Source: Strigamia acuminata (lineage: Eukaryota). From it: DNA of 64,000 nucleotides. The position numbers and the translations under genes were made by a program. Where the stretch lies: positions 1 through 64,000 of the forward strand of contig OX442314.1 of the NCBI GenBank assembly GCA_949358305.1, in the 5' to 3' direction. The notes under the pieces were generated by a model. It worked only from the letters and a program-made list of their open reading frames with translations, did not search any database and was not told where the DNA came from. Shown one piece after another: positions 3,001 through 25,404 of the stretch. How positions within the stretch are numbered: position 1 is the stretch's first letter; each line of letters starts with the position of its first letter.

Positions 3001-6000
3001 CCTAACCTAACCTAACCTAACCTAACCTAACCTAACCTAACCTAACCTAACCTAACCTAACCTAACCTAACCTAACCTAACCTAACCTAACCTAACCTAA
3101 CCTAACCTAACCTAACCTAACCTAACCTAACCTAACCTAACCTAACCTAACCTAACCTAACCTAACCTAACCTAACCTAACCTAACCTAACCTAACCTAA
3201 CCTAACCTAACCTAACCTAACCTAACCTAACCTAACCTAACCTAACCTAACCTAACCTAACCTAACCTAACCTAACCTAACCTAACCTAACCTAACCTAA
3301 CCTAACCTAACCTAACCTAACCTAACCTAACCTAACCTAACCTAACCTAACCTAACCTAACCTAACCTAACCTAACCTAACCTAACCTAACCTAACCTAA
3401 CCTAACCTAACCTAACCTAACCTAACCTAACCTAACCTAACCTAACCTAACCTAACCTAACCTAACCTAACCTAACCTAACCTAACCTAACCTAACCTAA
3501 CCTAACCTAACCTAACCTAACCTAACCTAACCTAACCTAACCTAACCTAACCTAACCTAACCTAACCTAACCTAACCTAACCTAACCTAACCTAACCTAA
3601 CCTAACCTAACCTAACCTAACCTAACCTAACCTAACCTAACCTAACCTAACCTAACCTAACCTAACCTAACCTAACCTAACCTAACCTAACCTAACCTAA
3701 CCTAACCTAACCTAACCTAACCTAACCTAACCTAACCTAACCTAACCTAACCTAACCTAACCTAACCTAACCTAACCTAACCTAACCTAACCTAACCTAA
3801 CCTAACCTAACCTAACCTAACCTAACCTAACCTAACCTAACCTAACCTAACCTAACCTAACCTAACCTAACCTAACCTAACCTAACCTAACCTAACCTAA
3901 CCTAACCTAACCTAACCTAACCTAACCTAACCTAACCTAACCTAACCTAACCTAACCTAACCTAACCTAACCTAACCTAACCTAACCTAACCTAACCTAA
4001 CCTAACCTAACCTAACCTAACCTAACCTAACCTAACCTAACCTAACCTAACCTAACCTAACCTAACCTAACCTAACCTAACCTAACCTAACCTAACCTAA
4101 CCTAACCTAACCTAACCTAACCTAACCTAACCTAACCTAACCTAACCTAACCTAACCTAACCTAACCTAACCTAACCTAACCTAACCTAACCTAACCTAA
4201 CCTAACCTAACCTAACCTAACCTAACCTAACCTAACCTAACCTAACCTAACCTAACCTAACCTAACCTAACCTAACCTAACCTAACCTAACCTAACCTAA
4301 CCTAACCTAACCTAACCTAACCTAACCTAACCTAACCTAACCTAACCTAACCTAACCTAACCTAACCTAACCTAACCTAACCTAACCTAACCTAACCTAA
4401 CCTAACCTAACCTAACCTAACCTAACCTAACCTAACCTAACCTAACCTAACCTAACCTAACCTAACCTAACCTAACCTAACCTAACCTAACCTAACCTAA
4501 CCTAACCTAACCTAACCTAACCTAACCTAACCTAACCTAACCTAACCTAACCTAACCTAACCTAACCTAACCTAACCTAACCTAACCTAACCTAACCTAA
4601 CCTAACCTAACCTAACCTAACCTAACCTAACCTAACCTAACCTAACCTAACCTAACCTAACCTAACCTAACCTAACCTAACCTAACCTAACCTAACCTAA
4701 CCTAACCTAACCTAACCTAACCTAACCTAACCTAACCTAACCTAACCTAACCTAACCTAACCTAACCTAACCTAACCTAACCTAACCTAACCTAACCTAA
4801 CCTAACCTAACCTAACCTAACCTAACCTAACCTAACCTAACCTAACCTAACCTAACCTAACCTAACCTAACCTAACCTAACCTAACCTAACCTAACCTAA
4901 CCTAACCTAACCTAACCTAACCTAACCTAACCTAACCTAACCTAACCTAACCTAACCTAACCTAACCTAACCTAACCTAACCTAACCTAACCTAACCTAA
5001 CCTAACCTAACCTAACCTAACCTAACCTAACCTAACCTAACCTAACCTAACCTAACCTAACCTAACCTAACCTAACCTAACCTAACCTAACCTAACCTAA
5101 CCTAACCTAACCTAACCTAACCTAACCTAACCTAACCTAACCTAACCTAACCTAACCTAACCTAACCTAACCTAACCTAACCTAACCTAACCTAACCTAA
5201 CCTAACCTAACCTAACCTAACCTAACCTAACCTAACCTAACCTAACCTAACCTAACCTAACCTAACCTAACCTAACCTAACCTAACCTAACCTAACCTAA
5301 CCTAACCTAACCTAACCTAACCTAACCTAACCTAACCTAACCTAACCTAACCTAACCTAACCTAACCTAACCTAACCTAACCTAACCTAACCTAACCTAA
5401 CCTAACCTAACCTAACCTAACCTAACCTAACCTAACCTAACCTAACCTAACCTAACCTAACCTAACCTAACCTAACCTAACCTAACCTAACCTAACCTAA
5501 CCTAACCTAACCTAACCTAACCTAACCTAACCTAACCTAACCTAACCTAACCTAACCTAACCTAACCTAACCTAACCTAACCTAACCTAACCTAACCTAA
5601 CCTAACCTAACCTAACCTAACCTAACCTAACCTAACCTAACCTAACCTAACCTAACCTAACCTAACCTAACCTAACCTAACCTAACCTAACCTAACCTAA
5701 CCTAACCTAACCTAACCTAACCTAACCTAACCTAACCTAACCTAACCTAACCTAACCTAACCTAACCTAACCTAACCTAACCTAACCTAACCTAACCTAA
5801 CCTAACCTAACCTAACCTAACCTAACCTAACCTAACCTAACCTAACCTAACCTAACCTAACCTAACCTAACCTAACCTAACCTAACCTAACCTAACCTAA
5901 CCTAACCTAACCTAACCTAACCTAACCTAACCTAACCTAACCTAACCTAACCTAACCTAACCTAACCTAACCTAACCTAACCTAACCTAACCTAACCTAA

Positions 6001-7850
6001 CCTAACCTAACCTAACCTAACCTAACCTAACCTAACCTAACCTAACCTAACCTAACCTAACCTAACCTAACCTAACCTAACCTAACCTAACCTAACCTAA
6101 CCTAACCTAACCTAACCTAACCTAACCTAACCTAACCTAACCTAACCTAACCTAACCTAACCTAACCTAACCTAACCTAACCTAACCTAACCTAACCTAA
6201 CCTAACCTAACCTAACCTAACCTAACCTAACCTAACCTAACCTAACCTAACCTAACCTAACCTAACCTAACCTAACCTAACCTAACCTAACCTAACCTAA
6301 CCTAACCTAACCTAACCTAACCTAACCTAACCTAACCTAACCTAACCTAACCTAACCTAACCTAACCTAACCTAACCTAACCTAACCTAACCTAACCTAA
6401 CCTAACCTAACCTAACCTAACCTAACCTAACCTAACCTAACCTAACCTAACCTAACCTAACCTAACCTAACCTAACCTAACCTAACCTAACCTAACCTAA
6501 CCTAACCTAACCTAACCTAACCTAACCTAACCTAACCTAACCTAACCTAACCTAACCTAACCTAACCTAACCTAACCTAACCTAACCTAACCTAACCTAA
6601 CCTAACCTAACCTAACCTAACCTAACCTAACCTAACCTAACCTAACCTAACCTAACCTAACCTAACCTAACCTAACCTAACCTAACCTAACCTAACCTAA
6701 CCTAACCTAACCTAACCTAACCTAACCTAACCTAACCTAACCTAACCTAACCTAACCTAACCTAACCTAACCTAACCTAACCTAACCTAACCTAACCTAA
6801 CCTAACCTAACCTAACCTAACCTAACCTAACCTAACCTAACCTAACCTAACCTAACCTAACCTAACCTAACCTAACCTAACCTAACCTAACCTAACCTAA
6901 CCTAACCTAACCTAACCTAACCTAACCTAACCTAACCTAACCTAACCTAACCTAACCTAACCTAACCTAACCTAACCTAACCTAACCTAACCTAACCTAA
7001 CCTAACCTAACCTAACCTAACCTAACCTAACCTAACCTAACCTAACCTAACCTAACCTAACCTAACCTAACCTAACCTAACCTAACCTAACCTAACCTAA
7101 CCTAACCTAACCTAACCTAACCTAACCTAACCTAACCTAACCTAACCTAACCTAACCTAACCTAACCTAACCTAACCTAACCTAACCTAACCTAACCTAA
7201 CCTAACCTAACCTAACCTAACCTAACCTAACCTAACCTAACCTAACCTAACCTAACCTAACCTAACCTAACCTAACCTAACCTAACCTAACCTAACCTAA
7301 CCTAACCTAACCTAACCTAACCTAACCTAACCTAACCTAACCTAACCTAACCTAACCTAACCTAACCTAACCTAACCTAACCTAACCTAACCTAACCTAA
7401 CCTAACCTAACCTAACCTAACCTAACCTAACCTAACCTAACCTAACCTAACCTAACCTAACCTAACCTAACCTAACCTAACCTAACCTAACCTAACCTAA
7501 CCTAACCTAACCTAACCTAACCTAACCTAACCTAACCTAACCTAACCTAACCTAACCTAACCTAACCTAACCTAACCTAACCTAACCTAACCTAACCTAA
7601 CCTAACCTAACCTAACCTAACCTAACCTAACCTAACCTAACCTAACCTAACCTAACCTAACCTAACCTAACCTAACCTAACCTAACCTAACCTAACCTAA
7701 CCTAACCTAACCTAACCTAACCTAACCTAACCTAACCTAACCTAACCTAACCTAACCTAACCTAACCTAACCTAACCTAACCTAACCTAACCTAACCTAA
7801 CCTAACCTAACCTAACCTAACCTAACCTAACCTAACCTAACCTAACCTAA
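1..7850 (+). repeat. Telomeric array (CCTAA)n, i.e. TTAGG on the minus strand; left chromosome end
   Basis: CCTAA pentamers with no visible variant from base 1 to 7850 (1570 units), C-rich strand 5'. The array ends abruptly at ctaatgctaac. TTAGG is the ancestral arthropod telomere motif. Confidence 0.99.
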
Positions 7851-9097
7851 CTAATGCTAACTTTGGAGCTAACAAATAATTGGCCATTTTAGATCCGGTC
7901 CTAACAACAGATCCACAGTACTGTTCTTCTTTGCTAACATTTCTTTGGTGATCTAATGAATCACACCACCATTTGCTAACAGAACTAAAGGTTGCTGGCC
8001 ATCACCTGTGGAGAGAAACAGTTACAATGAACAGTCATTAGAACAGTTTCTTACGTGCAAGCCAAAATAGACACAGCAGACAGGCATTAGATCTGTTTGG
8101 CAAATTCCAAAAATGGGTGCTCTTCAGGGAAAGACACAAAGATAAGTTTAGTCCCGCCCCCCCCCCAAAAAAAATGCCCATAAAATGCAGCATTAGGTGC
8201 CATAAATATGTCTGTGGATATGGTATTGCAATTTGGAAAACAAACAAAACGATTTGGCCAACTATTATTCCCTCATGTAACAAACAAAAACACAGACAAT
8301 AAACACAACAACACTGTTTCAACTTTCCAAGAAGATGCCGCTCATGACATATTACAAAAATTTAAGAAAGCAACAGAAGGAGGAGAAGAAGAAGATGGAA
8401 GAGGAGGAAGTTGCCAAAAAGGTTGCTGTGCCAACATTACTAGCTGCATCCAAAAATTAAAATATTTGTGTTTTTACAATTTTAGTTTAAGTGTGTTTTA
8501 AGTTTAAATTTTGAGTGTGAGAATTTTAACTCTATTTTACATCATTGATCACCTGATATGTAATCAATTCCAAAATGTAGCATATAATACTCTCCAAGTG
8601 ATAGAAAGAAGTACGCATTGTTGGGATGTTATTATTTGCAGTTGGATTTAAAATTTCTATGCCTTGCTGGCAGAAGTGAGGTAGAAAATTTAAAAAAGTA
8701 TGACCAACTGGCACCAGAGGTCATTTCCAGCATCAATTCCAAGATGAAGTGATTGGACAAGAAAGAAGAAATTAATTAATAAAGCATCTAAATAATATTT
8801 GTTATCAATCTTAGTTAGGAAAACACCAAATTTTATGGTTTGAATAAGAATTGTGTAACTACTTAAAAACATGGACACAGGTGAGCTACCTGTTTTCATG
8901 AAAGGTCTTCAGAAATTGAAATTCAAAATTTTTGTATTTATGTTTTATGAGTGTGTAGTACAAAAATTAAAAATATAACAGGAAGTGATGTGATAGGTTG
9001 TGAAGTGATGTCATGTAACTACAGATAAAATTTAAATTTGTGAGTGCTGGAATTTTCATAAAACTTTGTTTGAAATAAAATGTGAATATAATTACAG

Positions 9098-9787
9098 AAA
9101 CCAAAATACACTGTTGAGTTCAGTACAGTGCAGCTGAACAGTAACATAAAGGGACGCCAGAGATTGCACCAAACCTTACAGGAATTCGCCTTCATTCTGC
9201 TGAAACCAGAGAAAAGACATTACAGGGAAGAGGTAGCTGAATTGGACCAAGAGGAAGAACAAGAAAAGGCAGAAGAATTTGTCCAAAAGGAGGAGCAAGA
9301 AAGACAAAAGGACAAACCAGTGGTACTAATTTTCCACAAGTTCTCCACAACTTCTCTACAAGAACATGCATTTCTTTTTTCAAAAACAGAAAGAATTATA
9401 CTTCAAACTTCGGAAGAAGGACGAAGAAGATGAGGAAGAGGTGGGTGGAAAAGTGTGTTTGGATTAAACACAGGCATTCCTATTCAATATCTGTAAACGA
9501 AATTTCAGGATGATATGTACCACGAGGAGGAAATCCTCCACATCCTGGAGGGGGATAAGGAAGGCTTGTCGCCGTCGTCCCTTGGCTCGTCGCCGTCGCC
9601 CCTTGGCTCGTCGCCTCTTTTATCTCCTGATCTGGAAGCGCTGGTTTTTCAGCCACCATTTTCATCTCCATCCATTCCGCTGGTGGAGTGGTGGGATGCC
9701 CGGCTCGCTGAGCTGGACGAGCAATTCCCGTTGGCATCATCTCCACCACCGGCCTCACCGACATCCAGCTCAGAGGGCGTATTTTGA
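9098..9787 (+). CDS. 3' exons of a spliced orphan gene (acidic, then Ser/Pro-rich protein): join(9098..9322, 9390..9440, 9509..9787); 5' end unresolved
   Basis: Two phase-0 GT-AG introns of 67 nt (9323-9389) and 68 nt (9441-9508) join KPKYTVEF...KDKPV | KELYFKLRKKDEEDEEE | DDMYHEEEILHILEG...SSEGVF* in one frame. Acceptors are aattacag, aaaacag and tttcag. No family recognised. Confidence 0.55.
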
Positions 9788-10637
9788 TAAGACGGAGGAT
9801 TACCGACAGCCGAACGTGCCATATCACCTTTTGGGTTTGAGTCAAGTTTGAAGTGTTTGATTGTTTGTCGTCATATCGTTCGCGTGATTTATTTATTGCA
9901 CACTTCAGGATATGTGCGAAAAGCGTGCTAATGTTTAATAGACCGATATTGTGATCAACTGATTGTGAATGTTATCCACTTGCTTGTATCGTTTATTCAT
10001 ATTAGCACGTGTCGTCTGCTCGAAAGAGCTTGTGTTGTTTTACATTTTCCATTATGCTATCAATTATATTTGCCGGTGCTTTTTTCTTTTGTAAAGGATA
10101 AATTAAGGTAATAAACCATTGATTTATCCTATGGTTATATTCGAGTGCAATTCAGCCTCGAAACATGTTTCATTTCGCTTATGTTCAGTTATTAAAACAT
10201 GGCAGGCGCATGTCGGTATCCCGCACCAGTTTAATTGCCTTATTAACTTTATTTCGGGTCATGAGAAGCCGGGATAAACTCTTTTTTACCTCCTCCCACA
10301 CCACCAAACTGAGAAGAAAAGAAGAAATATTTGAAATGTAAAAAAAGTATTTTATCTTGAGTGTACATTTAACAGTCAGATGGCTCTGTTACAGGTTGGA
10401 TGTATTTTTGTTACTAGATGGCACTTCTCTCTGTAATGCAAAAAGAAAAGAAAATATCTGAACCCCCAAACATAACGTAGAGGTTTAAAAACACCTGAAC
10501 TTTAATTAGAAGAAAAGACAGAAAATATAAAAAAATAAAAAAAAAACCCTCCAATATTTCACATTCCCAAAATAGCCTTTCCTACCAAACAATCATATGT
10601 CAAAACAACACTCCTAAGCAAGAAAAGAGGGAGAAGA

Positions 10638-10661
10638 GCAATAAATCCTAGCTGCCAATGA
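10638..10661 (+). promoter_or_regulatory. Repeated promoter-like motif GCAATAAA-N8-GCCAATGA (CCAAT box), copy 1
   Basis: Same motif and spacing at 17412-17435 and 18231-18254. Followed by a short candidate exon ending AAAG|GTAAGA (donor at 10773). Confidence 0.5.
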
Positions 10662-10741
10662 GCTGCTAGCACTAGTCACTAGAGCTAATAAACCCTCAGA
10701 TGAACACCAAACACCAACTACCCAACACCATAGACCTTCTC

Positions 10742-13700
10742 ATGGCTGCTTATGTGGAAACACACCTAAAAGGTAAGACAAGCTGTGTAGGAACAGATAA
10801 ATGAGTGAAATCAGTGTCAATAATTAGTAGCAAGCTGCGGTGTGAACCAGCACGACCAGGGTCCTTTAAATGTTTTTCAAATCTGTTGGTGCAATTTTTG
10901 TGTCCAAAAAAAAAAAAAAAAATGGATCAGCATTAAGTGGTTAAACAGCACCTGTTTTCACTCGTAAATGTATTTTCCTTTCACATATTTCATACCAACA
11001 AACAGGGTAAAAAATTAGTACATTTCACAGCCATTTTAAAAGTGGAAACGGAAAGGATAAATTTGATATTAAAAAAAAGTGACCAAGTACAAGAAAAAAT
11101 TTAAATGGAAGTATTAATTAATTATTCCCCCACCAAATAGTAAAAGGCATGGTTGGTTGTATGTGTTTCCCACCAAACCTAACAAATATGTGTTCACACC
11201 TAAGCCTGCAGCAATACCCAAACAGCTGCCTATCTGTCAGAACAAAATTAGTGTTTTCTTTCTCTCTGGTGTCAACTACATGGAAGAATGACACCACGAC
11301 TAGGATCTTTTAAATGTTTTGCAAATAAGTAAACATTAAATCTGTTGGTTTAATTTTTGTGTGGACAAAAAAGAAAAAGAAAGTGCTATCTGTCTGTCTG
11401 CTTCGGCGGTTCTCTGTGTGGAGAGTGTTTTGGGTGTGTTTCTTCTTGGAAAATGAATATTTTTTTTTCTTCCCTTTATTATGTATTCAGCCGAATAACC
11501 TCACCACAGGGGCCCAAAAAAATTGTTTTGTTTACCCAGCAGGAAACGAAAATCTGTCCGACGCCACATCAAATGAAAACACTGTGACAAAACAAACAGA
11601 CAAAGACAAAAACAGCAGCAAAAAGCTACCAGGTCGAAAAAAAAGAAATGGGAGTATTAATTAATTAAGAAAAGGGCTGAAATGTGTATTAGCCGCCAAC
11701 AATAGACAAGGGAGTTTGGAACCAAACAAACATGTGTCCATATCACAATACCCTGCTTATGTGTCAGGACAGAATTAGTGTTTTCTTTCTCCAACCTGGT
11801 GTCAACTACATGAAAGAATGAATAAATGTTTTTCAAATAAGTAAGGTGCACGCAGAAGTATAGAATAATTAGTTTTGGGGAATTATTTCTTTTGGCGTTT
11901 CTTCTGGAATCCAACCATTTTTTAAATAAATGTATTTTGACATTAGAATTCATTTTCAATAAATGGGATTAGAAGTTTTGGAGAAAAAAAAATTTGGTAC
12001 TTATTTAACATAAAAATGGGGGTGACTTAAGCATAGAATATTTTAGGTTTGATGCAAAAAAAGGATAAAATTAATATCACACAACATGCCTTTGTTTGAT
12101 TATGCCATCAATTTTCGGCCATTTTGTTTTGAAGCAATCCCTTGTGCAAAACTTGTAACCATTGTAGAAATCGCTGAAATATGGCAATTGAAGACACTAA
12201 TCAGACAAAGGCATGTTATGTGATATTAATTTCATTCATTTTTCATTTTTCACCTAACCTAAAATATTCTATACTTATGTAAAAACACTGCTAATTTTAT
12301 AGTCTGTCTTGACTAAATATTAAAACTGTAATGGAGCATGCAAAATAACGTGACCGTTGGTGCTGCTGAGATTTACATAACTGACTAGTTTATTCAAAGA
12401 TAGGTGGCGCTGTAGTAGCAGCGTCACAATATATAACAATGGTCAAGACTGACCAATGGAGTGCGAGACACTCCAGTATCCCCTCAATTGTGGAATGGGG
12501 GAAGGAACAATTTAGAACAGTGAAATCAATTGATCTACAAGGATGCAATGTAATTAAAGTTGGTTTAAAAACAATCAATTGAACAATGAATTAAAAGGTA
12601 ACATGCATTGGAGTGAAGACACTCCATCATCCCCTCAATTGTGAACCAACTAGGGGAGCAATTAGTAAATTCAAAGTAACAGTTTGACATGAAATGCAAA
12701 TTTAAATTGAACAATAAAATACTTGGATTTTAAAACTACTGAATTATGCACGAAATGAAACTTGTAAAATTGAACATAACATGAATTTTGATTCCAACAA
12801 TGAATGAAATTAAACAGTGAAATGCTAACATGATAAATGAACAATAGTTGAGTGAACTAGCTTGATGAATTAGCAGCTAGACGGGAGACGGAAAGGAAGT
12901 CGGAATGACTCTCTCCTCCCCTCACAAGAAGCCAACAGAGAGCTAATTGTGACCCGTGCCCAACGCATGCGGTAGCGTTTTGATGGGCGAAAAGTGCGGC
13001 TAGACCAACGATGGTCCGTGACATCACCTGCGATGCACACGCCGGCACAATGGTTTGACGACTGCGGCTGGTCCCGAAACAAACACTGGGAGTTGTAGAA
13101 GCTACCCAAATGGCGTCTGCGGTTGTGACCAGTGATTTTCTGCGCTGGGGCAACCGTGGTCGAACGTGCATAGATGTCGGAGACTGCACATGTGGCGAGC
13201 TTCATCCGAATGGCTGACTGGTGAGCCTGAGCAAACTTCATTTCATACTGACTGATGATGGTTTGCTGAATGGCTGACTGGTGAGCCTGAGCGAACTTCA
13301 TTTCAGACTGACTGATGATGGTTTGCTGAATGTAGACACAACTCAACCCGTGGAGTTGATCAGAATAGTTGCAGTGCTCCGAACGCAGCTGCAACGAAAT
13401 GGCGAAATTTGCAACGGATTCCACCTGTCCCTGCACTCGGGTGTTGAAATTTCGACCGCGAGGAGGGGTTTTGAGTGCTGTTAATTGGCCTTCAACGCGG
13501 CGAGGGCAGCGAACGTCATCTGCACAAGCTTCATTGGAAAACAGGACAGCCAGACGTGTGTACGGCAGCCCGCCGACGAGGCACAGCAAAACAACCACTT
13601 TCTTCGTGTCATAGGTGATGTCACTGCACACGAAAAAGCAGTCCAACTGGTCAATGTAGTGGGTCCAGTTATTCTTGATGCAATATGGTTGCAGTGAACC

Positions 13701-16700
13701 GATACTTGAAGCGATCACAGAAGTTTTGCATGGAAAAAGCTTACATGAAAGTAGGCCTAACGGCATGGTCACGGCGTGGTCAAGGCGTGGTCACGGCATG
13801 GTCAAAGGTCCGAAACAGCACTTTACACTAATTTTAAGCGATTTTGTACATTACAGTTTGTGAGGTATTAATTGTTGATCCGTTTTGCATGATGATTTTC
13901 TTGAGAACACCGGAACAATTTGAAACAGGGTTAAACCTAACGTGTGGTCCGCGTGGTCAGCGTGGTCAGCAAAAGTTCGAAAAAGTCGCTATTTTTGCAC
14001 GAAAAAGTTCACAATAAAGAATGTGGATTCTTGTATTACCATCTCGTCGCCAATTAGTCTGTCTTGACTAAATATTAAAACTGTAATGGAGCATGCAAAA
14101 TAACGTGACCGTTGGTGCTGCTGAGATTTACATAACTGACTAGTTTATTCAAACACAGGTGGCGCTGCGCAAAGGTAGCGTCACAAATCAACAGGAAATG
14201 ACAATTACAGAATGGAGTACAGACACTCCATTTTATTTTCTTACAAACCTTACATTTCTGAGCGTAAAAAACCATGTTTTAAAGTGCAAACGGTCAAAAA
14301 TGAATTTTTAAGGCCCAACTAAACCATTTCTTAACATAAACAAACAGTCCGAAATGCAAATATTCATTATTTTAAGTCACTAATCAGACAAAGGCATGTT
14401 TTGTGATATTAATTTTATCCATCTTTTTTGCATCAAACCTAAAATATTCTATATTTATGTCAGCCCCATTTTTGTGTAAAATCACTGTCAAATTTATTTC
14501 CCCACAAAACTGTTAATTTGAAATGAATACTAAAGCCTAAATACATATATTAAAAAATTGGTTTCATTCCAGATGAAGCGCAAAAAGAAATATTTTTAAA
14601 AAACTGATTATTCTATACTTATGGCGCGCCTACAAAAAAAAAAAAAAAAAAGTGCTATTTTTTGGTCTGTCTGTCTGTGAGGAGTGTCTAAAGTTTGTTT
14701 TTTCCTGGAAAATAAATATTTGTTTTTTTTTCCGGGCAGAATACGCTTCTCATTCCTCACCGTCAAGACCTTCACCCAGTGGAGAAGAAGGAGACACAAC
14801 AAACGAACAACTGATTGGCCAGCTGCAGGGTAAAACAAGTTACTAACCTATACTAATACTAACCTCACCATGGGGCCCCAAAAAAAATTGTTTTGCACAC
14901 CCAGCAGGAAATTTGTCCCATGCCACATCAAACGAAGACAACGCGCCGAAACAAACAGACAAAGACAAAAACCCGAGCAGAAAACAGGATCAAAGCGACT
15001 GCAACGACACTGACGACAGCATGAGTGAAAGCGGCAGTCAGTATGAAGCGCCAGACTTGCCAACGGAAATGATTAAGTTCCTGGACCACAGGCAAAATCG
15101 CACGGCCATTGAAAATTTTCAAAAGTGGCTGAGCAATCCGGCCGGACATAACAAGGGTGCCCGGACAACTCGTCAACACGTCCAGCAGACGCAGCGTTTC
15201 ATCGGATCCCTGTGCGGCAAAAAATCAATGCTTCAAGGGGCCGAGGCCTGGTTCGTACGCTCACGCAAAAAGTATGCGCCAGGGACCGTGCTGAGCCAAG
15301 TCTCGTCGATACGCCTTTATTTTAATTTTATGAAGTTTGCCCAAGTGTCGGGCTGGGAAGAAAACCAGGCCTGGGATTTGGCTTTGTCTCTCGACTACAT
15401 GGTCTCCGTGTGGTTGAGAAACATCAAAAAAGACACCAATCGGCGCATAAAAGAGGTGGCGCAACGGGACTCGCTCCGCGCCCCCACACCCGACACAATG
15501 AGGCAGTTTTTTGCTTCGGAGCACGTCAAGGGAATCCACAGATCGCTCGACGGCCCACGAATGCGAAAGGATGAGTGGGACGGCAAAATGGCCACGCACG
15601 TCAGAGACGTCCTGGTGTCCGAGCTGTTGATGTTAAATGGCGCGCGGCAAGGTAACGCCACACAGATGACTCTGGGCGAGTGGAATCGCCGCCAAAAGGT
15701 AGACGGACAGGCTGTAATTACAGTCCATGAGGTGAAAAACATTGCCATCATAGGTGGCGCTGAAGTTGTGGCGGCTGATCGACTCGAAAAGCGGATTTCC
15801 GCATACGTCACCAACTTTCGCCGTCCCTGTTTCACCTCACGGTCCCTGGCTCGAGACGAAACAATGCCGCTGTTTGTTTCAGCACAGGGCAAGAAGATGT
15901 CGCGCACGACCGCGGCCAGCTGCGTGGGCAACGCATGGCAACGCGCCGGCCTTAGGCGCGTGACGGCCACAATTGTGCGCAAGGGAATCGTCTCCGAGGT
16001 GCACTCGGGCCACCACGACCTAGCGCCGGACCTAGCCCAATTAATGGGCCACACTTTGGCCACGGCGGAACGACACTATCGTGTGGCCGGGTCCGCAAAG
16101 AAGGCCGTGAGGACTGTCACGAGGATCGCTGACATAATGGGGACGGAGGGTGCAGTGGACGACAACGACTCAGGTAGCAGACATTACATCCAACAAACAC
16201 AAACAAACATTAACACTTCAACCTTTTTTCCAGATACAAGCGACAGCCAATTGGAAGAGAGGGGAGAAAGCGACGTGCCGTTGCAGCCTTCCGTGCAGAA
16301 TGCCACAGAAGTTCTCACCACCAGTCCCATGCCAACTGCAGCAAACAATCAGATGCCTCATGTGCCAACAGTGAATCCAGCATCCACAACAGGCCAACTG
16401 CAGTGCATCCCCCAGGAAACAGACCAACTGCAGTGCATCTCTCAGGAAACAGGTCAGGCTGGTATGTGTCTGATTACAACGCCTTGATGCTACCTTCACT
16501 CATTTGCTTGTTTGTGTCAGGTCCCTCAACTGTGCAAACAGCCACCATCCCAGGCTTTCCCGAAGGGATGGACTGGACCAGCGTGTTGGCGGCATCACTC
16601 CATGATCCCCGTCCACCGTTGCCAGCGGTTCAAAGGAGACAACGAAGAGTACCGGACACACCTTCAGATCCGCAGCCAAAGATTGGTCCACGCGAATCAT

Positions 16701-16882
16701 TCACACCTCCTCATCGAAAAATCATTCAAAAACACCTACACCGTTTTAGAGGCCGTGATGGGAATGTGGCCACAGACTTACTACGAGAAGCACTAAACAC
16801 AATTCCCGAGTTAGCAGAAATAAAGAGGCGTTACACACTCCAGCAGATTCGGGACAAGGCCAGAAGTTTCATCCGAGTGTAA
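10742..16882 (+). CDS. Full spliced model of the YR gene: join(10742..10772, [11543..11632], 14740..14829, 14908..16173, 16234..16461, 16521..16882)
   Basis: All predicted introns are GT-AG and phase 1 and keep the frame: MAAYVETHLK-G|gtaaga; two symmetric 90-nt exons; intron 14830-14907 with TACTAAC branch-like motifs and a NAGNAG acceptor; a 60-nt in-frame intron 16174-16233; a 59-nt intron 16462-16520. The 5' exons are the least certain (weak gtcgaa donor at 11633). Confidence 0.5.
12300..14230 (-). mobile_element. Gag-only, pol-less Ty3/Gypsy (Mag-like) LTR retrotransposon
   Basis: Two 176-bp LTRs (12300-12475, 14055-14230) start TGGAGTGTCT on the minus strand. 5-bp TSD TTTTA at 12295-12299 and 14231-14235. 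PBS TGGCGACGAG lies just inside the 5' LTR (14043-14052, minus). PPT-like GAGGGGA next to the 3' LTR. AATAAA within the LTR. Internal gag remnant. Confidence 0.85.
13030..13720 (-). pseudogene. gag: Degenerate Gypsy/Mag-type gag
   Basis: IGSLQPY..NNWTHYIDQLDCFF..SDI...KKVVVLLCLVGG, FNTRVQGQVESVANFAISLQLRSEHCNY and IQQTIISQSEMKFAQA resemble Mag gag motifs. Between them the gag-like segment (PMKLVQMTFAAL..LK..*..KPLLAVE) is in another frame with a stop. There is a 60-bp internal tandem duplication (~13208-13332) and a decayed Cys-knuckle region. Confidence 0.8.
14913..16487 (+). CDS. Tyrosine recombinase / integrase (Crypton-like or viral-integrase-like YR), main coding exon(s)
   Basis: Open 524-codon GC-rich frame. 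Candidate catalytic residues in canonical order: NGA-R245 (15645), K275 (HEVKN), TIV-R356-K (HxxR position), LMG-H380 and H-Y389 (LAQLMGHTLATAERHY). An upstream helical core-binding-like region (YAPGTVLSQVSSIRLYFNF) is present. Confidence 0.9.
   Translation: MSHATSNEDNAPKQTDKDKNPSRKQDQSDCNDTDDSMSESGSQYEAPDLPTEMIKFLDHRQNRTAIENFQKWLSNPAGHNKGARTTRQHVQQTQRFIGSLCGKKSMLQGAEAWFVRSRKKYAPGTVLSQVSSIRLYFNFMKFAQVSGWEENQAWDLALSLDYMVSVWLRNIKKDTNRRIKEVAQRDSLRAPTPDTMRQFFASEHVKGIHRSLDGPRMRKDEWDGKMATHVRDVLVSELLMLNGARQGNATQMTLGEWNRRQKVDGQAVITVHEVKNIAIIGGAEVVAADRLEKRISAYVTNFRRPCFTSRSLARDETMPLFVSAQGKKMSRTTAASCVGNAWQRAGLRRVTATIVRKGIVSEVHSGHHDLAPDLAQLMGHTLATAERHYRVAGSAKKAVRTVTRIADIMGTEGAVDDNDSGSRHYIQQTQTNINTSTFFPDTSDSQLEERGESDVPLQPSVQNATEVLTTSPMPTAANNQMPHVPTVNPASTTGQLQCIPQETDQLQCISQETGQAGMCLITTP
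16521..16882 (+). CDS. Terminal YR exon encoding a Pro-rich linker and a ~65-aa Myb/SANT-like helical domain
   Basis: Donor G|gtatgt (16462) and acceptor ttgtttgtgtcag (16520) splice in frame to GPSTVQ...RESFTPPHRKIIQKHL...YTLQQIRDKARSFIRV*. The domain has a paralog at ~19160-19368. Confidence 0.75.
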
Positions 16883-17059
16883 ATGTGTTTCCACTCGTTT
16901 TCACACAACATTCACACGAATTAATTCGTGTAAACGTCGTGTGAACTGGTAAAACGTTAAATTGGTTAAATGACCGTTCAACAAGTTTTCTCGTTAAAAA
17001 TCGGGTCTTGCTAGCAGCCATCTTGGATATTAATAATAAAAATAACTTAAATGAATTTT

Positions 17060-18060
17060 CTCTTTTAATCATATTTTTGTAATCTCCTGTTTCTTTTTCC
17101 CGAGTAAACAACAGGAATATTGACTGTGGTTATTGTTTGGATTAATTTATTTAAACTGGAATTTACACTGAAATTTACCCAGGCCTTACGAATTAACAAA
17201 AACCACACTTATATTTTCACCAACACTTATAAAAAAAAGGCCAAAATTGATACGTGCATGCAACATTTATATAAACACATACATGTAACGTTTATATAAA
17301 CACATAAACCGCCATTTTTCAAATACTACAAAAATCAGTAGTCAAACTCCCAGTTTACTTTGAAAAAAGAAAAAGCAGAAAATATTGATAAAATTTCTCC
17401 CTCCAATAACAGCAATAAACCCTAAAAGCCAATGACAACTAGGTGCACACGAAAAGTCATTTCCACTAAATGACCAGTGCGAATGGTAGTGTAAATATCC
17501 AACTTACGAGTTAAAAAAAAAATTCCAGTGTAATTTTCAGTGTAAATCCAAGTAATGGTTATTATTGGGACCAATTAATTTTGCCATTTAATCACATTTT
17601 TTCTAATCGTACGAGTAACGTTTATATAAAAACATAAACCGCCAAACAAATTTACATTTTATAATTATGTTTTTGTAATCTCCTGTTTTTTTTTTAGTGA
17701 ACAACAGCAATAATGACTATGGTTATTATTTGGACTTTTCCCGCTTGAATTCACACTTTTTTTTCAACTCGAAAGTTGGGTCATTTAACTTGTCATTTAC
17801 AACTAGGTGCACACGAAAAGTCATATGCACTAAATGACCAGTGCAACTGGTAGTGTAAACATTCAATTTACAAGTTTTTTAAAAAAAGAAACAGTGTAAA
17901 TTGCAGTGTTAATCCAAGTGTAAATTAATTGGTGCCAATAATAACCATTCGATCGCACAAATACGGTTAATAACTGACTGTTGTTACGATCGAAATCGCA
18001 ACGTTTATATAAATACGTACATGTAATCTTTATGTAAAAACATAAACCGCCATTAACCCC
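17060..18060. repeat. Patchwork of diverged direct and inverted repeats (MITE-like remnants)
   Basis: aactaggtgcacacgaaaagtcat at ~17437 and ~17801; ~17071-17140 resembles ~17665-17735; tttacactgaaatt is inverted relative to cagtgtaaa motifs; acgtttatataaa...cataaaccgcca recurs three times. Confidence 0.55.
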
Positions 18061-18230
18061 CCCTCAAAAAAAGGCGATTTATGTTTTTTTTTCTGTTATA
18101 CGGAAAATATGCATTTATATTCAATTTCGGCTTTTTACGAAAGAATAATATCCCAGCCAAAAATATTGATTGATAAATTACAGAAACCCCCCTTTAACCC
18201 AGACCAATAAGATTTGCAAGAGGGGACACA

Positions 18231-18254
18231 GCAATAAAACCAAAAAGCCAATGA
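18231..18254 (+). promoter_or_regulatory. GCAATAAA-N8-GCCAATGA motif, copy upstream of the stand-alone Myb-like gene
   Basis: Spacing identical to the copies at 10638 and 17412. Followed by CCAAAG|GTAAGA donor at 18334. Confidence 0.5.
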
Positions 18255-18900
18255 GACAGCTGGTCAAGATAACCAAATCTTCATAGCTCCACAGAAGTCT
18301 ACCTTGAACCCACCTCAGCTAGCTGTCCCAAAGGTAAGAATCAGAAACAAACCTATTAATATGTTGCAAGAGGCCTTTTTATCAATTAATAGAATGAAAT
18401 AATTAATAGAATGAAAAAATTAATAGAATGAAAAAATTAATCATTATTATTAATAATAATTAATAATAATAAAAATTAATAAAATTAATAATAATTACTA
18501 TTAAAATAATTAATAGAAAGAAATAATAACATAAAAGGATAATTGTATAATTATAATTATTTCTGCTGAATTCCAAATAAATAAACTCAAAAACCCAGGT
18601 CCAGTGTTTAAAAGGTCAAACATGGGTTTTCTTCAAATCTAACCAATATGTGTCAAAATTCAACCCCTCCAGCACTTTGGAAGAAACTACAACTTACGTG
18701 TCTAACCTACCAGTCATTAGTCAAATTAGTTGTGAATGACACAAAAGATGCCTTTATGCACACAACATTAGCCTTTGAGATGAAAACACACAGCAATGGC
18801 TAATAACTAGAAGGATCAGTCATTTCCTTTTCTCTCCTTAATTCCTTGTTTAATTGATTAACTAACAGAAGAGATTAAACTAAACAAATTGTTATTTCAG

Positions 18901-19368
18901 GAAGACATTATGGAACAAATGAGTTCCACCTGCACCGTACCAGCAAAACTTATCGACCTGACTGATGAACTGATTGAACTGATGTTCCTAACCAACATGG
19001 ACGAAACCCCGCATTCACCAACCCCGCCTCCACCATTCCCATGGCCCATGTCACCAACACCATCTCCTCCGTCCACACCCACGCCACCGACAGCACCATC
19101 CCCACCGCCCACGCCACCGACACCACCATCACCGCCAACGTGTCCGTCCTGGCAGAAAAAGCGACGAAGGGGATCATTCACCCCTGAGGATCGAGCCGTC
19201 ATTGCGCGCCACCTCAAGTTGTTAACCGACAGACGAGGACGGCCCCGTTCGGCTCGATTGCGTTGGGCTCTTGAAAATTGCGTGGGCCTCAAACATCTAC
19301 CATCTGTGTACACCTTTGGGCAGATACGTGATCGTGTTGCTGCATTCACGAGAAAACCGAACGTGTGA
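18901..19368 (+). CDS. Pro-rich protein ending in the same Myb/SANT-like domain as the YR C-terminus (terminal exon; ATG at 18910)
   Basis: Acceptor ttgttatttcag at 18900. PxxP-rich linker, basic KKRRR, then SFTPEDRAVIARHL...LRWALE...YTFGQIRDRVAAF, colinear with YR SFTPPHRKIIQKHL...LREALN...YTLQQIRDKARSF. Confidence 0.8.
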   Translation, partial: EDIMEQMSSTCTVPAKLIDLTDELIELMFLTNMDETPHSPTPPPPFPWPMSPTPSPPSTPTPPTAPSPPPTPPTPPSPPTCPSWQKKRRRGSFTPEDRAVIARHLKLLTDRRGRPRSARLRWALENCVGLKHLPSVYTFGQIRDRVAAFTRKPNV

Positions 19369-20077
19369 CCTGTGCGAGAGAAAAAAGAAAAAGAAATAAG
19401 AAAAAGAAATTTAAAGAAAGAAATAGAAAAATGAAATAAAATTGTAAACAGAATAAAAAAAAAAATCAAACAAAATAAAATAAAAAAGCCAACATCAATT
19501 ATCATTATTATTATTATCAAAAACACATAAAAAAATGACCAAAACACATTAAAAAACAACAAAAATCATCTAATTAGATTCCAATATAAAGCGCATGAAG
19601 CAGGAAGCAGCCTCTAAAACAATCTCTTAGCAACAGGTACTTTGGATTCTATAGTAAACAACCCAAATACTGAAAGGAAAAGTAAATGAGTTAAGTGTGT
19701 TTTACATTTAAAGATACAGAAAAATATATTATATATAGTATATTAGAAGCATGAAAGAAAATTTAACAATCTAAATATAAAAATATGAAAATAATGAAAA
19801 TTATTTAAAAAAGGCTTCATGATCTAATGATCGAAGGGATTGACCATTTCGGCGTGCATATAAACTAATGGAGAAAAAAGGTCTAATGTCCGCAGCAGGC
19901 AGCTGTTTTTGTCGCCAACACACCTTTCATTGGATGGCGTGATCCATTAGCTCTCGTCATTCATTAGCTTAGTGGACTAATGGTCGTATTTAATCGCTAT
20001 TTCGGCGTGCGAATGAGCTCGGTGAATTGCTATTCCGGCGTGCAAACGAGCCTGGTTTGCCATTACTTCACCATCGT

Positions 20078-21130
20078 TAATCGATCCACCGAGCTCATTC
20101 GCACGCCGAAATAGCAACCCAAAACGATTATTAGTTCTGCAGGCACTTTTCATTGGTTTTGCGGTATACTGTTGGTGTGATTCATTAAGTTGGTGGTCTA
20201 ATCGATCCACCGAGCACATTCGCACGCCGAAAAAGCAACCCAAAACGATTATTAGTTCTGCAGGCACTTTTCATTGGTTTTGCGGTATACTGTTGGTGTG
20301 ATTCATTAAGTTGGTGGTCTAATCGATCCACCGAGCTCATTCGCACGCCGAAATAGCAACCCAAAACGATTATTAGTTCTGCAGGCACTTTTCATTGGTT
20401 TTGCGGTATACTGTTGGTGTGATTCATTAAGTTGGTGGTCTAATCGATCCACCGAGCTCATTCGCACGCCGAAATAGCAACCCAAAACGATTATTAGTTC
20501 TGCAGGCACTTTTCATTGGTTTTGCGGTATACTGTTGGTGTGATTCATTAAGTTGGTGGTCTAATCGATCCACCGAGCTCATTCGCACGCCGAAATAGCA
20601 ACCCAAAACGATTATTAGTTCTGCAGGCACTTTTCATTGGTTTTGCGGTATACTGTTGGTGTGATTCATTAAGTTGGTGGTCTAATCGATCCACCGAGCT
20701 CATTCGCACGCCGAAATAGCAACCCAAAACGATTATTAGTTCTGCAGGCACTTTTCATTGGTTTTGCGGTATACTGTTGGTGTGATTCATTAAGTTGGTG
20801 GTCTAATCGATCCACCGAGCTCATTCGCACGCCGAAATAGCAACCCAAAACGATTATTAGTTCTGCAGGCACTTTTCATTGGTTTTGCGGTATACTGTTG
20901 GTGTGATTCATTAAGTTGGTGGTCTAATCGATCCACCGAGCTCATTCGCACGCCGAAATAGCAACCCAAAACGATTATTAGTTCTGCAGGCACTTTTCAT
21001 TGGTTTTGCGGTATACTGTTGGTGCGATTCATTAAGTTGGTGGTCTAATCGATCCACCGAGCTCATTCGCACGCCGAAATAGCAACCCAAAACGATTATT
21101 AGTTCTGCAGGCACTTTTCATTGGTTTTGC
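20078..21130. repeat. 121-bp tandem array, about 8.7 near-identical copies
   Basis: Units start TAATCGATCCACCGAG at 20078, 20199, 20320, 20441, 20562, 20683, 20804, 20925 and 21046. Only a few substitutions seen. An inverted copy of the core lies at 19996-20024. Confidence 0.97.
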
Positions 21131-22273
21131 TGTATAATGGGAATTATTCCCAAAGAAATTTCCTACAAATCTCTGTCTGACAGTTTCATTAGAAGCAAAA
21201 CTAGTGTGTTTTGAAATGCTTTTTTCATTTGATTTTGTGCCAATTTCATAATAATAATAATAAAATGTCATTTTAAAACACATTTCTTCCTTAAATTCCC
21301 ACAAAAACAAACGAAAATTGCATTTTTAATCACAATTTGCCGATAAATTGTGTTAAAATCAATATTTTAACACAATTTTTGCACTAAATCGCATCTACAA
21401 TTGACACAAACACATCCAAAATTGACAAAATTGACAAAAAGAATAAAAGAAAAACGGGTGACTGCACCAAACATCATCCAAAATAAATCACCCAAAAAAA
21501 CCTGCTTACCTTGATGTCCTGCATGGCCTTAGTGCAGACCACGACTGTCCGCAGCCAAAAACACCTAGAAAAACAAAAGAAAAATAAGAAAATTGCCGAA
21601 ATACACGCAATTTCCCAACGTTCATAAAATAATTAATTTAAAAACCTTTCTGTACCCACTCCAGCCCTGGCAAAAATTCTTACATATTAATCTATCACTC
21701 CTCAGAACCATATGGAACCAAGAGCGAGGTCTGAGGGCCGCTTAAGACGAAAAACACCTGAAAAACAGAGAAAGGAAATTAAAAATGGTGCAAAAATCGT
21801 GCAAAAATCATACAAAAAAGCATTAATGCAAAATGCAAATAAAATTCGAATTATTAAACAAACCTACCTTGCCTGAATAAAAAAAAACAAAAAAAAAAAA
21901 AAACAACCACTGGCTACTGATTTCGCGGCGATAGCCGCGATATCGATAAAACAAAAGAAAAACAAAAACAAAAGAAATGCATTAAACAAACTTTAAACCA
22001 AACCAACCTTCCTTAATTCACACTCACCTTACTGTAAATATGGGGCACTCACAGGCCTAGGAGGACAAGAACCTAGAATGATAAGAAAAAAACACAAAGA
22101 ACCGATTCCTTGTCAAAAAAATAAAGAAAAAGAAAAAGAAATACTTATCGTTCACTAGAGCCTTCAACTCTGAAGACGTATCCACCCGCCATTCCTACCT
22201 ATAAAAACAACAAAAAAATAAGCCACTATCATTAAAAATTAAACAAAAAAGCCACTTCAAACATGAAATGCCA

Positions 22274-22333
<60 letters not shown>

Positions 22334-22334
22334 C
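22274..22334. repeat. (CCTG)n microsatellite
   Basis: About 15 perfect CCTG units. Confidence 0.95.
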
Positions 22335-23124
22335 TGAAAAAGAATTAGTAACTTAAAAATTATTATAAAAATTGTTTTATTTTAAAACAAATTAGGTTAA
22401 ACACATTAAGCTTTGCCTGTGGTTCCGTTGACGAGCCGGGAAATCCTTAAGAAACCCGAAAGACCGAATCGTTTAATTCGTTTACTCGCCACTAGATGTC
22501 AGACAAATAAGAATCCAAACATAATTTCCGAAACACACTGTTGAAAATTGGCAACAATTTCAATCATGTTGTGAATTGATTTTGTGAAAAGAAATATATT
22601 AATAAAATATTAACATCCTTGAATGTTGATTAGTAACTGTGTCTGCTTGCAGTAGAAATGTCATGGTCACTTTATCACGAATATCAATATTTACTCCACA
22701 TTTTCAAAAGCACTGTCAACACTCGGTGGCATGCAGCAAAAAAACACAAAGTTTATTGATTGTACATTGTCAAAAGCACTGCCTCCACTCGGTTGGTGGA
22801 TCTATAGTGAAATACAATTCAGACTTGATCATTAGTTCGTGCAGTGTGCTAGATATAGGTGAATCTGAAAGCTAAATACATGACTGAGTCTGACATCTGA
22901 CCTCAGATAAAAGTTCCCAGATAACTCACAATGTCACAATTGTCAACAACGTGTATCTGCAATGCTTCTGAAATTGCTGTACAGTACAGCCGCCAGAAAA
23001 AGGTCATGCATGCACCCGGAAAACGTGATTATTTGGCGAGATCATTTAAATCCCAAGTTGTCACATAAAAACAAATAAAAACTGCAACGATATATCACCG
23101 TGCGAATTAGTCAACAATAAATTG

Positions 23125-23276
23125 TCAATAACTGCTCCATCCAGGGGATGCATACATGTGTTCTTGGGGACAGACGTGACATCCAAATTGATTTGATGAA
23201 TCTTAATAAGTCCCTGATGGGCACTGACTGCACTGGTTTTTATCCAAATCAAAAAACTTTCCTGCAGAACAAGACA
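23125..23276 (-). pseudogene. Pseudo-exon encoding an Ephrin_rec_like (GCC2/GCC3) Cys-rich repeat of SVEP1/SCUBE/uninflatable type
   Basis: After acceptor ttttggcag the frame reads VSCSAGKFFDLDKNQCSQCPSGTY*DSSNQFGCHVCPQEHMYASPGWSSY*, matching C.xG.(F/Y)...C..CP.GTYQD...Q..C..CP. The usual Q position is TAA (23203-23205). Confidence 0.75.
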
Positions 23277-23913
23277 CTGCCAAAACAATTTTAATTGATA
23301 AAATTAATAAAAAAAATAAATAATCAATTAATTCAAAGGTACAGTTTTATGAAATTTCAATTGGGAAAGTGTATTCACTATTCAGCGCAACAAAATCAGA
23401 GGTGACTGTTGACTGCAATTAGCGCACCAACTTGTTGAATAATAATATTTGTCCAGTTGCACGATTCAAGGCACGATTCTGAGAAGAACGCAACCACAAA
23501 CGTGATTTGCACCTTAATTGAATTGCGTCAGATTTTGCCACGCTTTCTATAGTTTCCAGATAGAGAAAAAAATTACCTACCGCATTTTCCATGCAAATAT
23601 ATCTGTCCATCAGGGCATACTGTATCATTAGATGATGGAAAATGAAACGAAAATGAATAAAAACTGAAAAAAATAGATGAAAAATGAAAAAAAACGTCAA
23701 AAACAAATTTTAAAAAAAAGCAATTTACCTTCTACAATGTCCTGTGTGGCTATACCGCAGTCGGGGGTCGTCCACGGGCCTTTGGTCGGTCAAAGATGCC
23801 TGGAAAATAAAAGAAAAATGAATAAAGACATCAAAAATTAAAAGAAAAAAAAAAACCGAAAACAAAAACGTCCAAATCAAATTTCAAAATATTCCGTTCA
23901 TCATCTACGATGT

Positions 23914-24130
23914 CCCGCCCCCTCTCCCTCCCCCTCCCCGCCCCGCCCCCTCGCCCCCTCTCTCCCCTCCCCGCCCCCCCTCTCCCCCCTCCCCTCTCCC
24001 CGCCCCCCCTCTCCCCCCTCCCCGCCCCCCCTCTCCCCCCTCCCCTCCCCGCCCCCTCTCCCCCCCTCCCCTCCCCGCCCCCTCTCCCCCCCCTCCCCTC
24101 CCCGCCCCCTCTCCCCCCTCCCCCTCCCCG
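23914..24130 (-). repeat. C-rich low-complexity tract (G-rich on the minus strand, G-quadruplex-prone)
   Basis: About 215 bp of CCCCTCTCCCC / CCCCGCCCC runs. Confidence 0.9.
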
Positions 24131-24212
24131 CCAATGGCGGTGGCAATGTTGGGGCCCGTCTTGGTTGTTCTGGCCCATGTTGAACCAGCAAAAAAAAGCT
24201 GTCTTGGAAACA

Positions 24213-24340
24213 GAAATAATGAGGAAATAATGAGGAAATAATGAGGAAATAATGAGGAAATAATGAGAAAATGCCTACCCAAAGCCAAGAAATACCGTCT
24301 TGGAAACAGAAATGAGGAAATAATGAGGAAATAATAAGGG
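24213..24340. repeat. 11-bp minisatellite (AATAATGAGGA)n in two clusters, each preceded by gtcttggaaacaga
   Basis: About 5 copies at 24213-24270 and about 2-3 at 24310-24340. Confidence 0.85.
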
Positions 24341-24629
24341 AAGGCTTTCCAAAATTGCCGTCCTGAAAACAGAAATAAATGCCTTTCCAAAGGAAATGCC
24401 TTCTTGTCCAGTTGGGCGGAATCCAGAAACAACCAAAAAGCTGTGCTTTGCCTGCAAAAATGTTAACCCTACTAAAAAAACAAATCCAGTTGGCCCGGAA
24501 ACGCTCTTCCGCAACCAACCAGCAGCGAGCAGCGGATTTGCCGCCTGTCATTTGCCCATCTCTCACCCCCAAATCCGCCGACTATATTATAAATATTAAA
24601 TGCATCCTCGGATTTGGGGACGCGCCTGG

Positions 24630-24920
24630 GTTGGCTGTGGAGCGGTTGAGTCCGGTCTAAATCTGTTCTCCATGCACGCCATTGGCTGAAAAACAGATCT
24701 AGACCGGACTTAACCGCTCCATAGCCAATGGCGTGCATGGAGAACAGATTTAGACCGGACTCAACCGCTCTATAGCCAATCCGGGCCCAGGAACCGGATT
24801 TGCATGGATCGGTCGTGTTCGGTCTGGATTTGCTCTTCAGCCAACGACGTGCATGGAGGGCAGATCCAGAGCGAACACGACCGCTCCATAGCCAATCCGG
24901 GCCCAGAAACCGGATTTTCG
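24630..24920. promoter_or_regulatory. CpG-rich palindromic region with multiple CCAAT boxes
   Basis: Perfect 48-bp inverted repeat 24640-24687 / 24723-24770. A second imperfect IR at ~24806-24839 / ~24854-24888. ATAGCCAAT at ~24721, ~24772 and ~24888, plus ATTGGCT at ~24681. Confidence 0.55.
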
Positions 24921-25404
24921 CGTGCAATTTTGGTCTGGGATAAACGGCATCAGGGGGCGTGCGTGTTGCTTGTAATTTTCCCAAAGAGGGCGCCACTTAC
25001 GATGGTAATGGCGCCCATGTGTTGGGGAAAATTTATTACCGTTGTTTGCACCTGGCCCAGAACACATGCATGGACAGGAGTGAATAAATGAAAAAGCATC
25101 CAAGGTTTTTGATTCTCCCCCAGAAATTGTAATAATTTGGGTCCGCCCAATGTTTGGATGCACCCAGGCGTGTATGTGTACGTGGACACAGTGTAATAAA
25201 TATGCATTTGCTTTTTGAATATTTCATATTTTTTAAATTTTATTTCCACCAAATTAAATGGCGCTTAAAAACAATTAATGGATAATGTAACAATTTTTTT
25301 TATTCATCATGTTTTAAATTTTGACGTTACAAATGACATCCTGTAAAGTCTGTTCTGGCTATTACATAATGCTTGATGTCCCAAACCATAAATTTCTCTT
25401 TTTC

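Follow-up and report, generated by a model that had tools for sequence, protein, structure and literature searches.

A multi-copy tyrosine recombinase element at a telomere border of Strigamia acuminata, possibly a Crypton-type transposon

Does the DNA that adjoins the telomeric repeats at a chromosome end of Strigamia acuminata belong to a mobile element and, if so, of which kind? Telomere-specialised elements of animals with TTAGG repeats are mostly retrotransposons or giant viruses. We analysed the first 64,000 nucleotides of the forward strand of contig OX442314.1 (assembly GCA_949358305.1), hereafter the window. Its bases 1-7851 are (CCTAA)n, 1570.2 copies at 100% identity in the orientation of a left chromosome end, the TTAGG unit pointing to an arthropod, and at 7851 this array gives way abruptly, without a zone of variant repeats, to unique DNA that extends to about 25.4 kb, the remaining ca. 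38 kb being satellite. The unique part holds an intact open reading frame (ORF) of a tyrosine recombinase (YR) at 14847-16487 on the plus strand, together with a partner gene and an orphan gene (Table 1). An earlier note on this DNA, the original prediction, had suggested that these genes may form an undescribed YR-mobilised cargo element that inserts into or resolves at telomeric repeats. The presence of a multi-copy YR element at the telomere border is real, and its targeting of telomeres is plausible, though unproven. Our favoured reading, to which we give about an even chance, is that 7852-21139 is one copy of a multi-copy, Crypton-type DNA transposon targeting the border of the TTAGG telomere. 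Four observations carry it: the intact signature of the YR, the homogeneity of its many copies, a left region common to them, and motifs associated with the ends.

First, the core of the YR is intact. The catalytic R, K, R, H and Y are all in place, each conserved in 129-136 of the 138 rows of the family alignment; the His of the HxxR motif is replaced by Thr, as in 110 of these rows, leaving five of the six signature residues. The NCBIfam XerD profile matches the protein (E 8.7e-7), the Pfam Phage_integrase profile weakly (E 0.11). The core modelled from the 138-row alignment reaches a predicted local distance difference test score (pLDDT) of 92, and the single-sequence fold was unusable (pLDDT 38). 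The model matches XerH (Z 17.7, root-mean-square deviation 3.7, 300 residues), and also Cre and Tn1549 Int; with these three it shares both domain folds (Z 14-18 over about 280-300 residues), and it differs from them in its 10-15% identity, its eukaryotic and spliced nature, and its extra tail domain. By sequence, the PDB returned nothing meaningful for the YR, and a profile search of the PDB with its family found XerA weakly (E 0.007). Judged by the modelled fold, the window YR qualifies as a member of the tyrosine recombinase superfamily. The gene model (GT-AG introns, open for 704 amino acids from the ATG at 10700) uses splice sites that we chose, its 5′ exons following from splice consensus and frame alone. 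Joining the core to the tail requires just one intron (16462-16520, 59 nt), and the segment 16174-16233, being 60 nt long and open, may be coding. An intact YR near the telomere, as claimed before, is borne out by profile, model and residues alike, and its introns are those of a predicted gene model.

This YR is, as in Cryptons, the sole mobility enzyme recognised among the ORFs scanned. These numbered 32 (25 + 7) out of 91 listed and were picked for their length or their more coding-like sequence. No reverse transcriptase (RT), DDE transposase, capsid or viral family matched any of them (for the 25 further ORFs, at a Pfam E of 0.01), in agreement with the absence of RT, DDE and capsid genes noted before. 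A retrotransposon of the DIRS/Ngaro/VIPER/TATE kind was rejected, as no YR-linked RT or RNase H appeared among the ORFs scanned. TATE of Leishmania, described in the part of the source cited here as a YR element at a fixed position in telomeric repeats and a DIRS-type retrotransposon (PMC6681497), resembles our unit in being a YR element at telomeric repeats and differs from it in the RT and RNase H. Together with the nimaviruses (see below), it is a precedent for YRs that target telomeric repeats.

Second, the unit is present many times. Three public read runs from two studies contain the YR (X1, X2 and X3), one of them possibly from the window's own sample; X6, of the same species label and from a third study (19 Mb of contigs), covered mere fragments and was uninformative. 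Read contigs were compared to positions 7801-20070, the repeat stretch 7801-7859 being skipped, so that outer left flanks lay outside the scope; read depth is an uncalibrated proxy and not a copy number. From about 7860 to about 17200 the sequence is near-identical and multi-copy in the reads of both studies. Depths in X1 are 3,912 (7989), 4,249 (8874), 4,419 (9973-10893), 4,378 (14664-15096), 4,443 (15384-15873), 4,220 (16224-17495) and 3,745 (18511-19371), its contigs showing 0-2 differences per 400-1,270 bp, and depth in X3, which comes from the other study, is about 1,040-1,130 across the same core. There is also a second YR subfamily, about 88% identical (15019-15839, in X1 and X2), at about 1/40 of the main depth; its contig, with 97 differences in about 820 bases, has a depth of 99 in X1; in X2 the depth is 360. 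Core depth exceeds diverged depth about 44-fold in X1 and 36-fold in X2, which suggests tens of copies if the diverged contig is one locus, and we put the core unit, as a rough figure, at tens of copies. The contig at 7989 ends 130 bases away in X1 and X3, at the edge of the skipped repeat near 7859; on our reading almost every copy extends to the telomere junction, the high-depth contigs stopping about 8 bases short of it. The junction as one end of the element, as first proposed, gains from this, the CCTAA array itself being seen beside the window copy. A single-copy domesticated host gene is ruled against by read depth and by multicopy relatives: what we find is a homogeneous multi-copy unit of a family that is dispersed in Hydractinia (see below).

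Not all parts of the unit are fixed. In X1, X2 and X3 alike, contigs of full depth pass over the insert within the YR intron, which most copies lack, the joint 12293 to 14230 having a depth of 4463 in X1 vs 790 inside the insert. The partner gene is high-copy in X1 and X2 and low-copy in X3, where the region 17188-19254 that includes it has a depth of 56-75, and where joints from 17320 to 18068 and from 18130 back to 16909 occur at a depth of 912. The orphan gene is high-copy in X1, X2 and X3. With insert and partner gene optional, the fixed core consists of the junction, the orphan gene and the YR. The original prediction mentioned neither the 1,936-bp insert missing from most copies nor the optional nature of the partner gene, which, low-copy in X3, is no fixed part of the supposed cargo element.

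Could these copies have spread without any action of the recombinase? One old insertion of a YR element at a telomere might have been followed by copying of the terminal segment to many chromosome ends through ordinary subtelomeric recombination, with the YR as a passenger, in the way proposed for the yeast Y′ and fungal TLH blocks. We regard this main rival as possible but on the unlikely side. It would account for copies whose telomere side is near-identical and whose inner side varies (in X3 after about 17.2 kb) and for the missing proximal telomere tract, and the 38-kb satellite at 25.4-64 kb could give the homology for exchange. A mere passenger is harder to reconcile with a YR that retains all catalytic residues, with end motifs that match at both boundaries, and with the changes seen within the YR coding sequence: the indels listed for X3 preserve the frame (+48 nt at 16353-16381, and a compensated +1/-1 at 16629/16632), which, with the low-depth diverged subfamily, points to selection and to an older lineage.

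Third, short motifs tie the left boundary at 7851 to the region between 19.8 and 21.1 kb, close to the right end (21130) of the original prediction. CTAATG, the hexamer of the left terminus, occurs four times in 19824-19982, a clustering reached in 0 of 500 shuffles and shared by 2 of 1332 four-letter hexamers; these copies are alternative candidate ends. The 15-bp motif lies 102 bases in from the left end and, inverted, 102-105 bases in from the end of the 121-bp array; 44 of 2000 shuffles reach an inverted match of that length against 8200-25500. We predict it to be a binding site of the recombinase or of the tail domain. The TAATG at the array's end is the 5-mer that follows the telomere at 7852, the internal 121-bp units reading TACTG there; the chance of TAATG at both 7852 and 21135 is about 0.01 for a 7-base window, a post hoc figure. 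In the part of the source cited here, Cryptons F, S, A and I have an intron-bearing YR, a proposed circular intermediate and terminal direct repeats of 4-6 bp thought to be recombination substrates, with termini of TATGG in CryptonS (PMC3212892). Our unit resembles them in its YR gene with predicted introns, and may do so in the candidate TAATG repeats, which would then be terminal repeats of the Crypton type. Directly right of the proposed end lies a perfect palindrome with 7-bp arms (21138-21152), which may serve as a target site or mark where another element begins.

A number of observations weigh against such a transposon: 1) the end motifs were found post hoc, and TAATG occurs 27 times in 17.6 kb; 2) the TG of the right TAATG could be part of the adjoining palindrome; 3) the left junction is one C short of a clean in-register cut; 4) right of 7851, over 56 kb, there is no triple of CCTAA/TTAGG on either strand at up to 2 mismatches; 5) in X3 the majority of copies depart from the window sequence beyond about 17.2 kb, so that a right end common to all copies is conjectural; and 6) the lack of a right tract and the inward variability are accounted for just as well by passive copying between chromosome ends. 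By the fourth point, the window copy has telomeric repeats on one side and not, like nimaviruses, on both, which is the chief argument against simple insertion into the array.

The same junction invites another explanation: a dispersed Crypton-like element without preference for telomeres, whose chromosome broke at the left end, possibly at a nick made by the YR, and was healed by telomerase on CTAA/CTAAC. The sharp junction without variant repeats, one base off register, would follow naturally, as would the non-telomeric right flank; five CTAAC seeds lie in 7851-8100, and the YR family is dispersed over the chromosomes of Hydractinia. Yet few contigs continue into unlike sequence (about 3% in X1 and 6% in X3), no loose end at the junction appears among those listed, from which rows at repeats had been removed, and a break landing exactly at a terminus demands a special cause. 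We consider healing quite unlikely.

Who are the relatives of this recombinase? A HMMER search against 1.84 billion representatives gave 447 proteins at E ≤0.001; among the 150 matches listed, two are 37-40% identical to the window YR and nearly all others 23-36%. Of 30 of these listed clusters that were looked up, 7 carry organism names, all cnidarian: Actinostola, Dendronephthya, Hydractinia (two clusters), Clytia (two) and Paramuricea. The best Atlas clusters for the YR (0.96-0.98) are eukaryotic, mostly molluscs and chordates. One Hydractinia cluster has 8 members at least 90% identical, on contigs of four chromosome-scale lengths, as in a mobile family. When search hits alone were placed in a FastTree tree without outgroup (132 of 138 rows, 6 being dropped for coverage below 60%), the window YR grouped with two metagenome proteins at support 99; this three-member clade shares a VKN motif, at whose first position 128 of the 138 rows have H. 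Word-index protein searches, which are poorly sensitive to this family, gave 0 matches for the single query and 0 among proteins of 1956-5000 amino acids, and 2 with the YR alignment; no loci of YR relatives were found in the metagenome and viral contigs searched.

Domain content separates this family from several named groups. Integrase catalytic or SAM families matched 15 of the 32 homologues scanned, and none of the 32 matched DUF3504, DUF3435, NDC10_II or GCR1_C at E 0.01. The window protein itself has no match to DUF3504, NDC10_II or GCR1_C at E up to 1, and none to DUF3435. The captain of Starships is a DUF3435 protein, and a Starship was rejected because neither the window YR nor the homologues scanned match this family. 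An assignment to CryptonA/I or CryptonF was rejected likewise, since the required DUF3504 or NDC10_II/GCR1_C domain was not matched; in this the window YR differs from these groups.

A loose C2H2 pattern, N-terminal and finger-like, occurs in 68 of 163 stored homologues, none being seen in the window's gene model. This bears on the idea that the unit is the remnant of an endogenous nimavirus, or of another large DNA virus, that integrated into TAACC repeats by means of a YR, which we hold to be very improbable. In the parts of the sources cited here, endogenous nimaviruses measure 280-580 kb, carry core genes, are flanked by telomeric repeats on both sides and have a YR with (TAACC/GGTTA)n, and decapods are mentioned as a source of related YR-like proteins that are not viral (PMC10871703, PMC7016691). 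The telomere YRs of nimaviruses contain C2H2 and SAM-like domains, and their genes can have several exons (PMC10871703, in the part cited). The likeness thus comprises a YR beside telomeric repeats and domains also found in many homologues of the window YR. Against it, no viral gene family was found among the ORFs scanned; none of the 50 BFVD fold matches listed exceeds 16% identity and no named row among them is nimaviral, though the YRs may still be kin; the unit is 13 kb long vs about 280-580 kb; and the named homologues are genes of cnidarian genomes. As an endogenous nimavirus proper the unit was rejected: no core genes appeared among the ORFs scanned, its size is below 280 kb, and TAACC repeats lie on one flank and not on both.

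The closest described elements are those of the CryptonV group. In the cited portions of the literature, target-specific DNA transposons of eukaryotes are rare, those named being Pokey, Dada and CryptonV (PMC8869645), and CryptonV comprises YR DNA transposons that target microsatellites, described from cnidarians (Kapitonov and Jurka 2012, Repbase Reports, via PMC8869645; listed in PMC5753468). With such microsatellite-targeting cnidarian YR transposons on record (PMC8869645), to call the element undescribed was too strong. Like CryptonV, our unit is a YR-only DNA element; CryptonV is described from cnidarians, where all named homologues of the window YR fall, and some CryptonV families insert specifically in microsatellites. 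Unlike CryptonV, our unit adjoins the telomere itself, with the repeat on its left side only; it is about 11-13 kb long and carries two additional small genes and a terminal array of 121-bp units; and its YR falls in the three-member VKN clade, kinship with the Repbase entries being judged by description. On such a comparison of descriptions, the element is probably in, or sister to, CryptonV. The literature that we covered, which excluded Repbase Reports and most subscription journals, contained no telomere-targeting non-viral YR DNA transposon of animals.

How might a Crypton-type transposon behave at such a site? By analogy with Cryptons and phage integrases, we suggest that the process would involve 1) binding of the YR to the CTAATG and 15-bp motifs that recur at both ends; 2) circular excision of the element, the crossover taking place within a short overlap (TAATG/TAA); 3) reintegration, either at the innermost telomere repeats through a TAA overlap, the proximal repeats having since been lost, or at an adjoining TAATG; and 4) later homogenisation and rearrangement of the copies through exchange between chromosome ends. 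Integration with minimal homology by the YR of a eukaryotic virus has precedent (bioRxiv 10.1101/2025.09.15.676377, in the part cited). A bolder version, which we think improbable, is a self-propagating cassette of chromosome ends: the YR would join the left end to telomeric DNA, so that in most telomeres of the species the unit would now be the usual first block on the inner side. Telomeric retrotransposons would then have a DNA-only equivalent, in which the tail-domain gene, being catalytically empty, would act as targeting factor or repressor. If a small, intact, multi-copy YR element does reside at the telomere border, it would offer a tractable pair of substrate and enzyme for a widespread, little-studied family of animal recombinases. 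It would allow tests of how YRs recognise simple repeats, of whether nimaviruses drew their telomere integrase from this pool of YRs, and of whether site-specific recombination helps shape subtelomeres.

Table 1. Coordinates of the features of the candidate element within the window.
Feature	Position	Strand	Remarks
Left terminus CTAATG	7851-7856	+	TAATG 7852-7856 = candidate left terminal direct repeat
15-bp subterminal motif	7954-7968	+	Inverted in 121-bp units near right end
Orphan gene	8871-9787	+	Predicted, small introns, acidic, 177-209 amino acids
YR gene	10700-16882	+	Six predicted exons
YR exons	10700-10772, 11540-11632, 14740-14829, 14905-16173, 16234-16461, 16521-16882	+	Predicted
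Inverted-repeat element, like a miniature inverted-repeat transposable element, in YR intron	11853-14623	.	Arms about 250 bp, 80%
Nested insert, 1,936 bp, inside YR intron	12294-14229	-	Direct repeats of about 180 bp at its ends
YR core-binding and catalytic domains	15060-16160	+	Fold model, profile, alignment
YR catalytic residues	R 15645, K 15735, R 15978, H 16050, Y 16077	+	Alignment
C-terminal tail domain of YR, about 62 amino acids	16682-16879	+	Common to whole YR family
Partner gene, last exon	18901-19368	+	Pro-rich linker and one tail-domain copy, no catalytic domain
Right subterminal region	19820-20135	.	Four CTAATG in 160 bp and 52-bp inverted repeat (19976-20027 / 20084-20135)
121-bp tandem array	20078-21139	.	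8.8 copies, 99% identical, each with inverted left-end motif
TAATG at exact array end	21135-21139	+	Candidate right terminal direct repeat

The tail domain links the YR to its neighbour. It had been called Myb-like, a likeness seen by eye: family searches matched no Myb family to the tail in the window protein or in 32 homologues, and the tail is a domain found across the family, with 192 occurrences in 135 stored homologous proteins, isoforms counted. A profile of it built without the window sequences recovers the tail of the YR at 1.8e-7 and the partner gene at 1.1e-4, and the best Atlas match of the tail (0.87) is a mollusc-rich cluster. The C-terminus of the partner is paralogous to the YR tail (39% over 62 amino acids, E 6e-10), as had been claimed. 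Having the tail domain and no catalytic domain, the partner is predicted to be an optional DNA-binding helper or repressor. The orphan gene of the earlier claim is a predicted one, a spliced model (exons 9129-9322, 9390-9440 and 9509-9787 in the three best models) from our own splice scoring, and no homologue or convincing Pfam match was found.

The YR locus has features of its own. Its 5′ region is duplicated internally (11340-11630 / 14630-14990, with 79% identity over 134 bp at 11496-11625 / 14860-14987), yielding two paralogous phase-1 exons. The nested insert carries a minus-strand frame of 306 codons (12870-13790) without Pfam or NCBIfam match, which we take to resemble a Gypsy gag. Sites like CCAAT boxes, in similar context (10654, 17427 and 18246), precede the first exons predicted for the YR and the partner gene. 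After the YR stop, 16900-18200 consists of degenerate repeats of about 365 bp with higher read depth, of which X3 has a rearranged version. Close to the junction, a short Glu/Lys-rich frame on the plus strand (8305-8460) looks coding, and no convincing spliced model was found for it; the left 250 bases of the unique DNA fold no better than shuffles (z -0.8).

Beyond the proposed right end, at least six short segments on the minus strand of 21510-23800 are chained by strong GT-AG signals, among them 23800-23730, 22073-22033, a 5-nt micro-exon near 21870, and 21565-21510. The joins tried gave no long open frame and the chain was excluded from the element; it might represent a spliced non-coding RNA transcribed in the direction of the telomere. 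A tRNA scan found none, and Rfam gave merely sub-threshold matches to microRNA-like hairpins at 24631-24753. The stretch 24624-24917 consists of GC-rich nested inverted repeats with 99-bp arms that form long hairpins. Finally, the satellite part has 2% unique 25-mers and zero unique runs, and 25400-64000 is a complex satellite of 9-bp (AGCCCTCAG), 22-bp and 60-62-bp units with higher-order periods of about 1.1-1.2, 3.3 and 5.2 kb.

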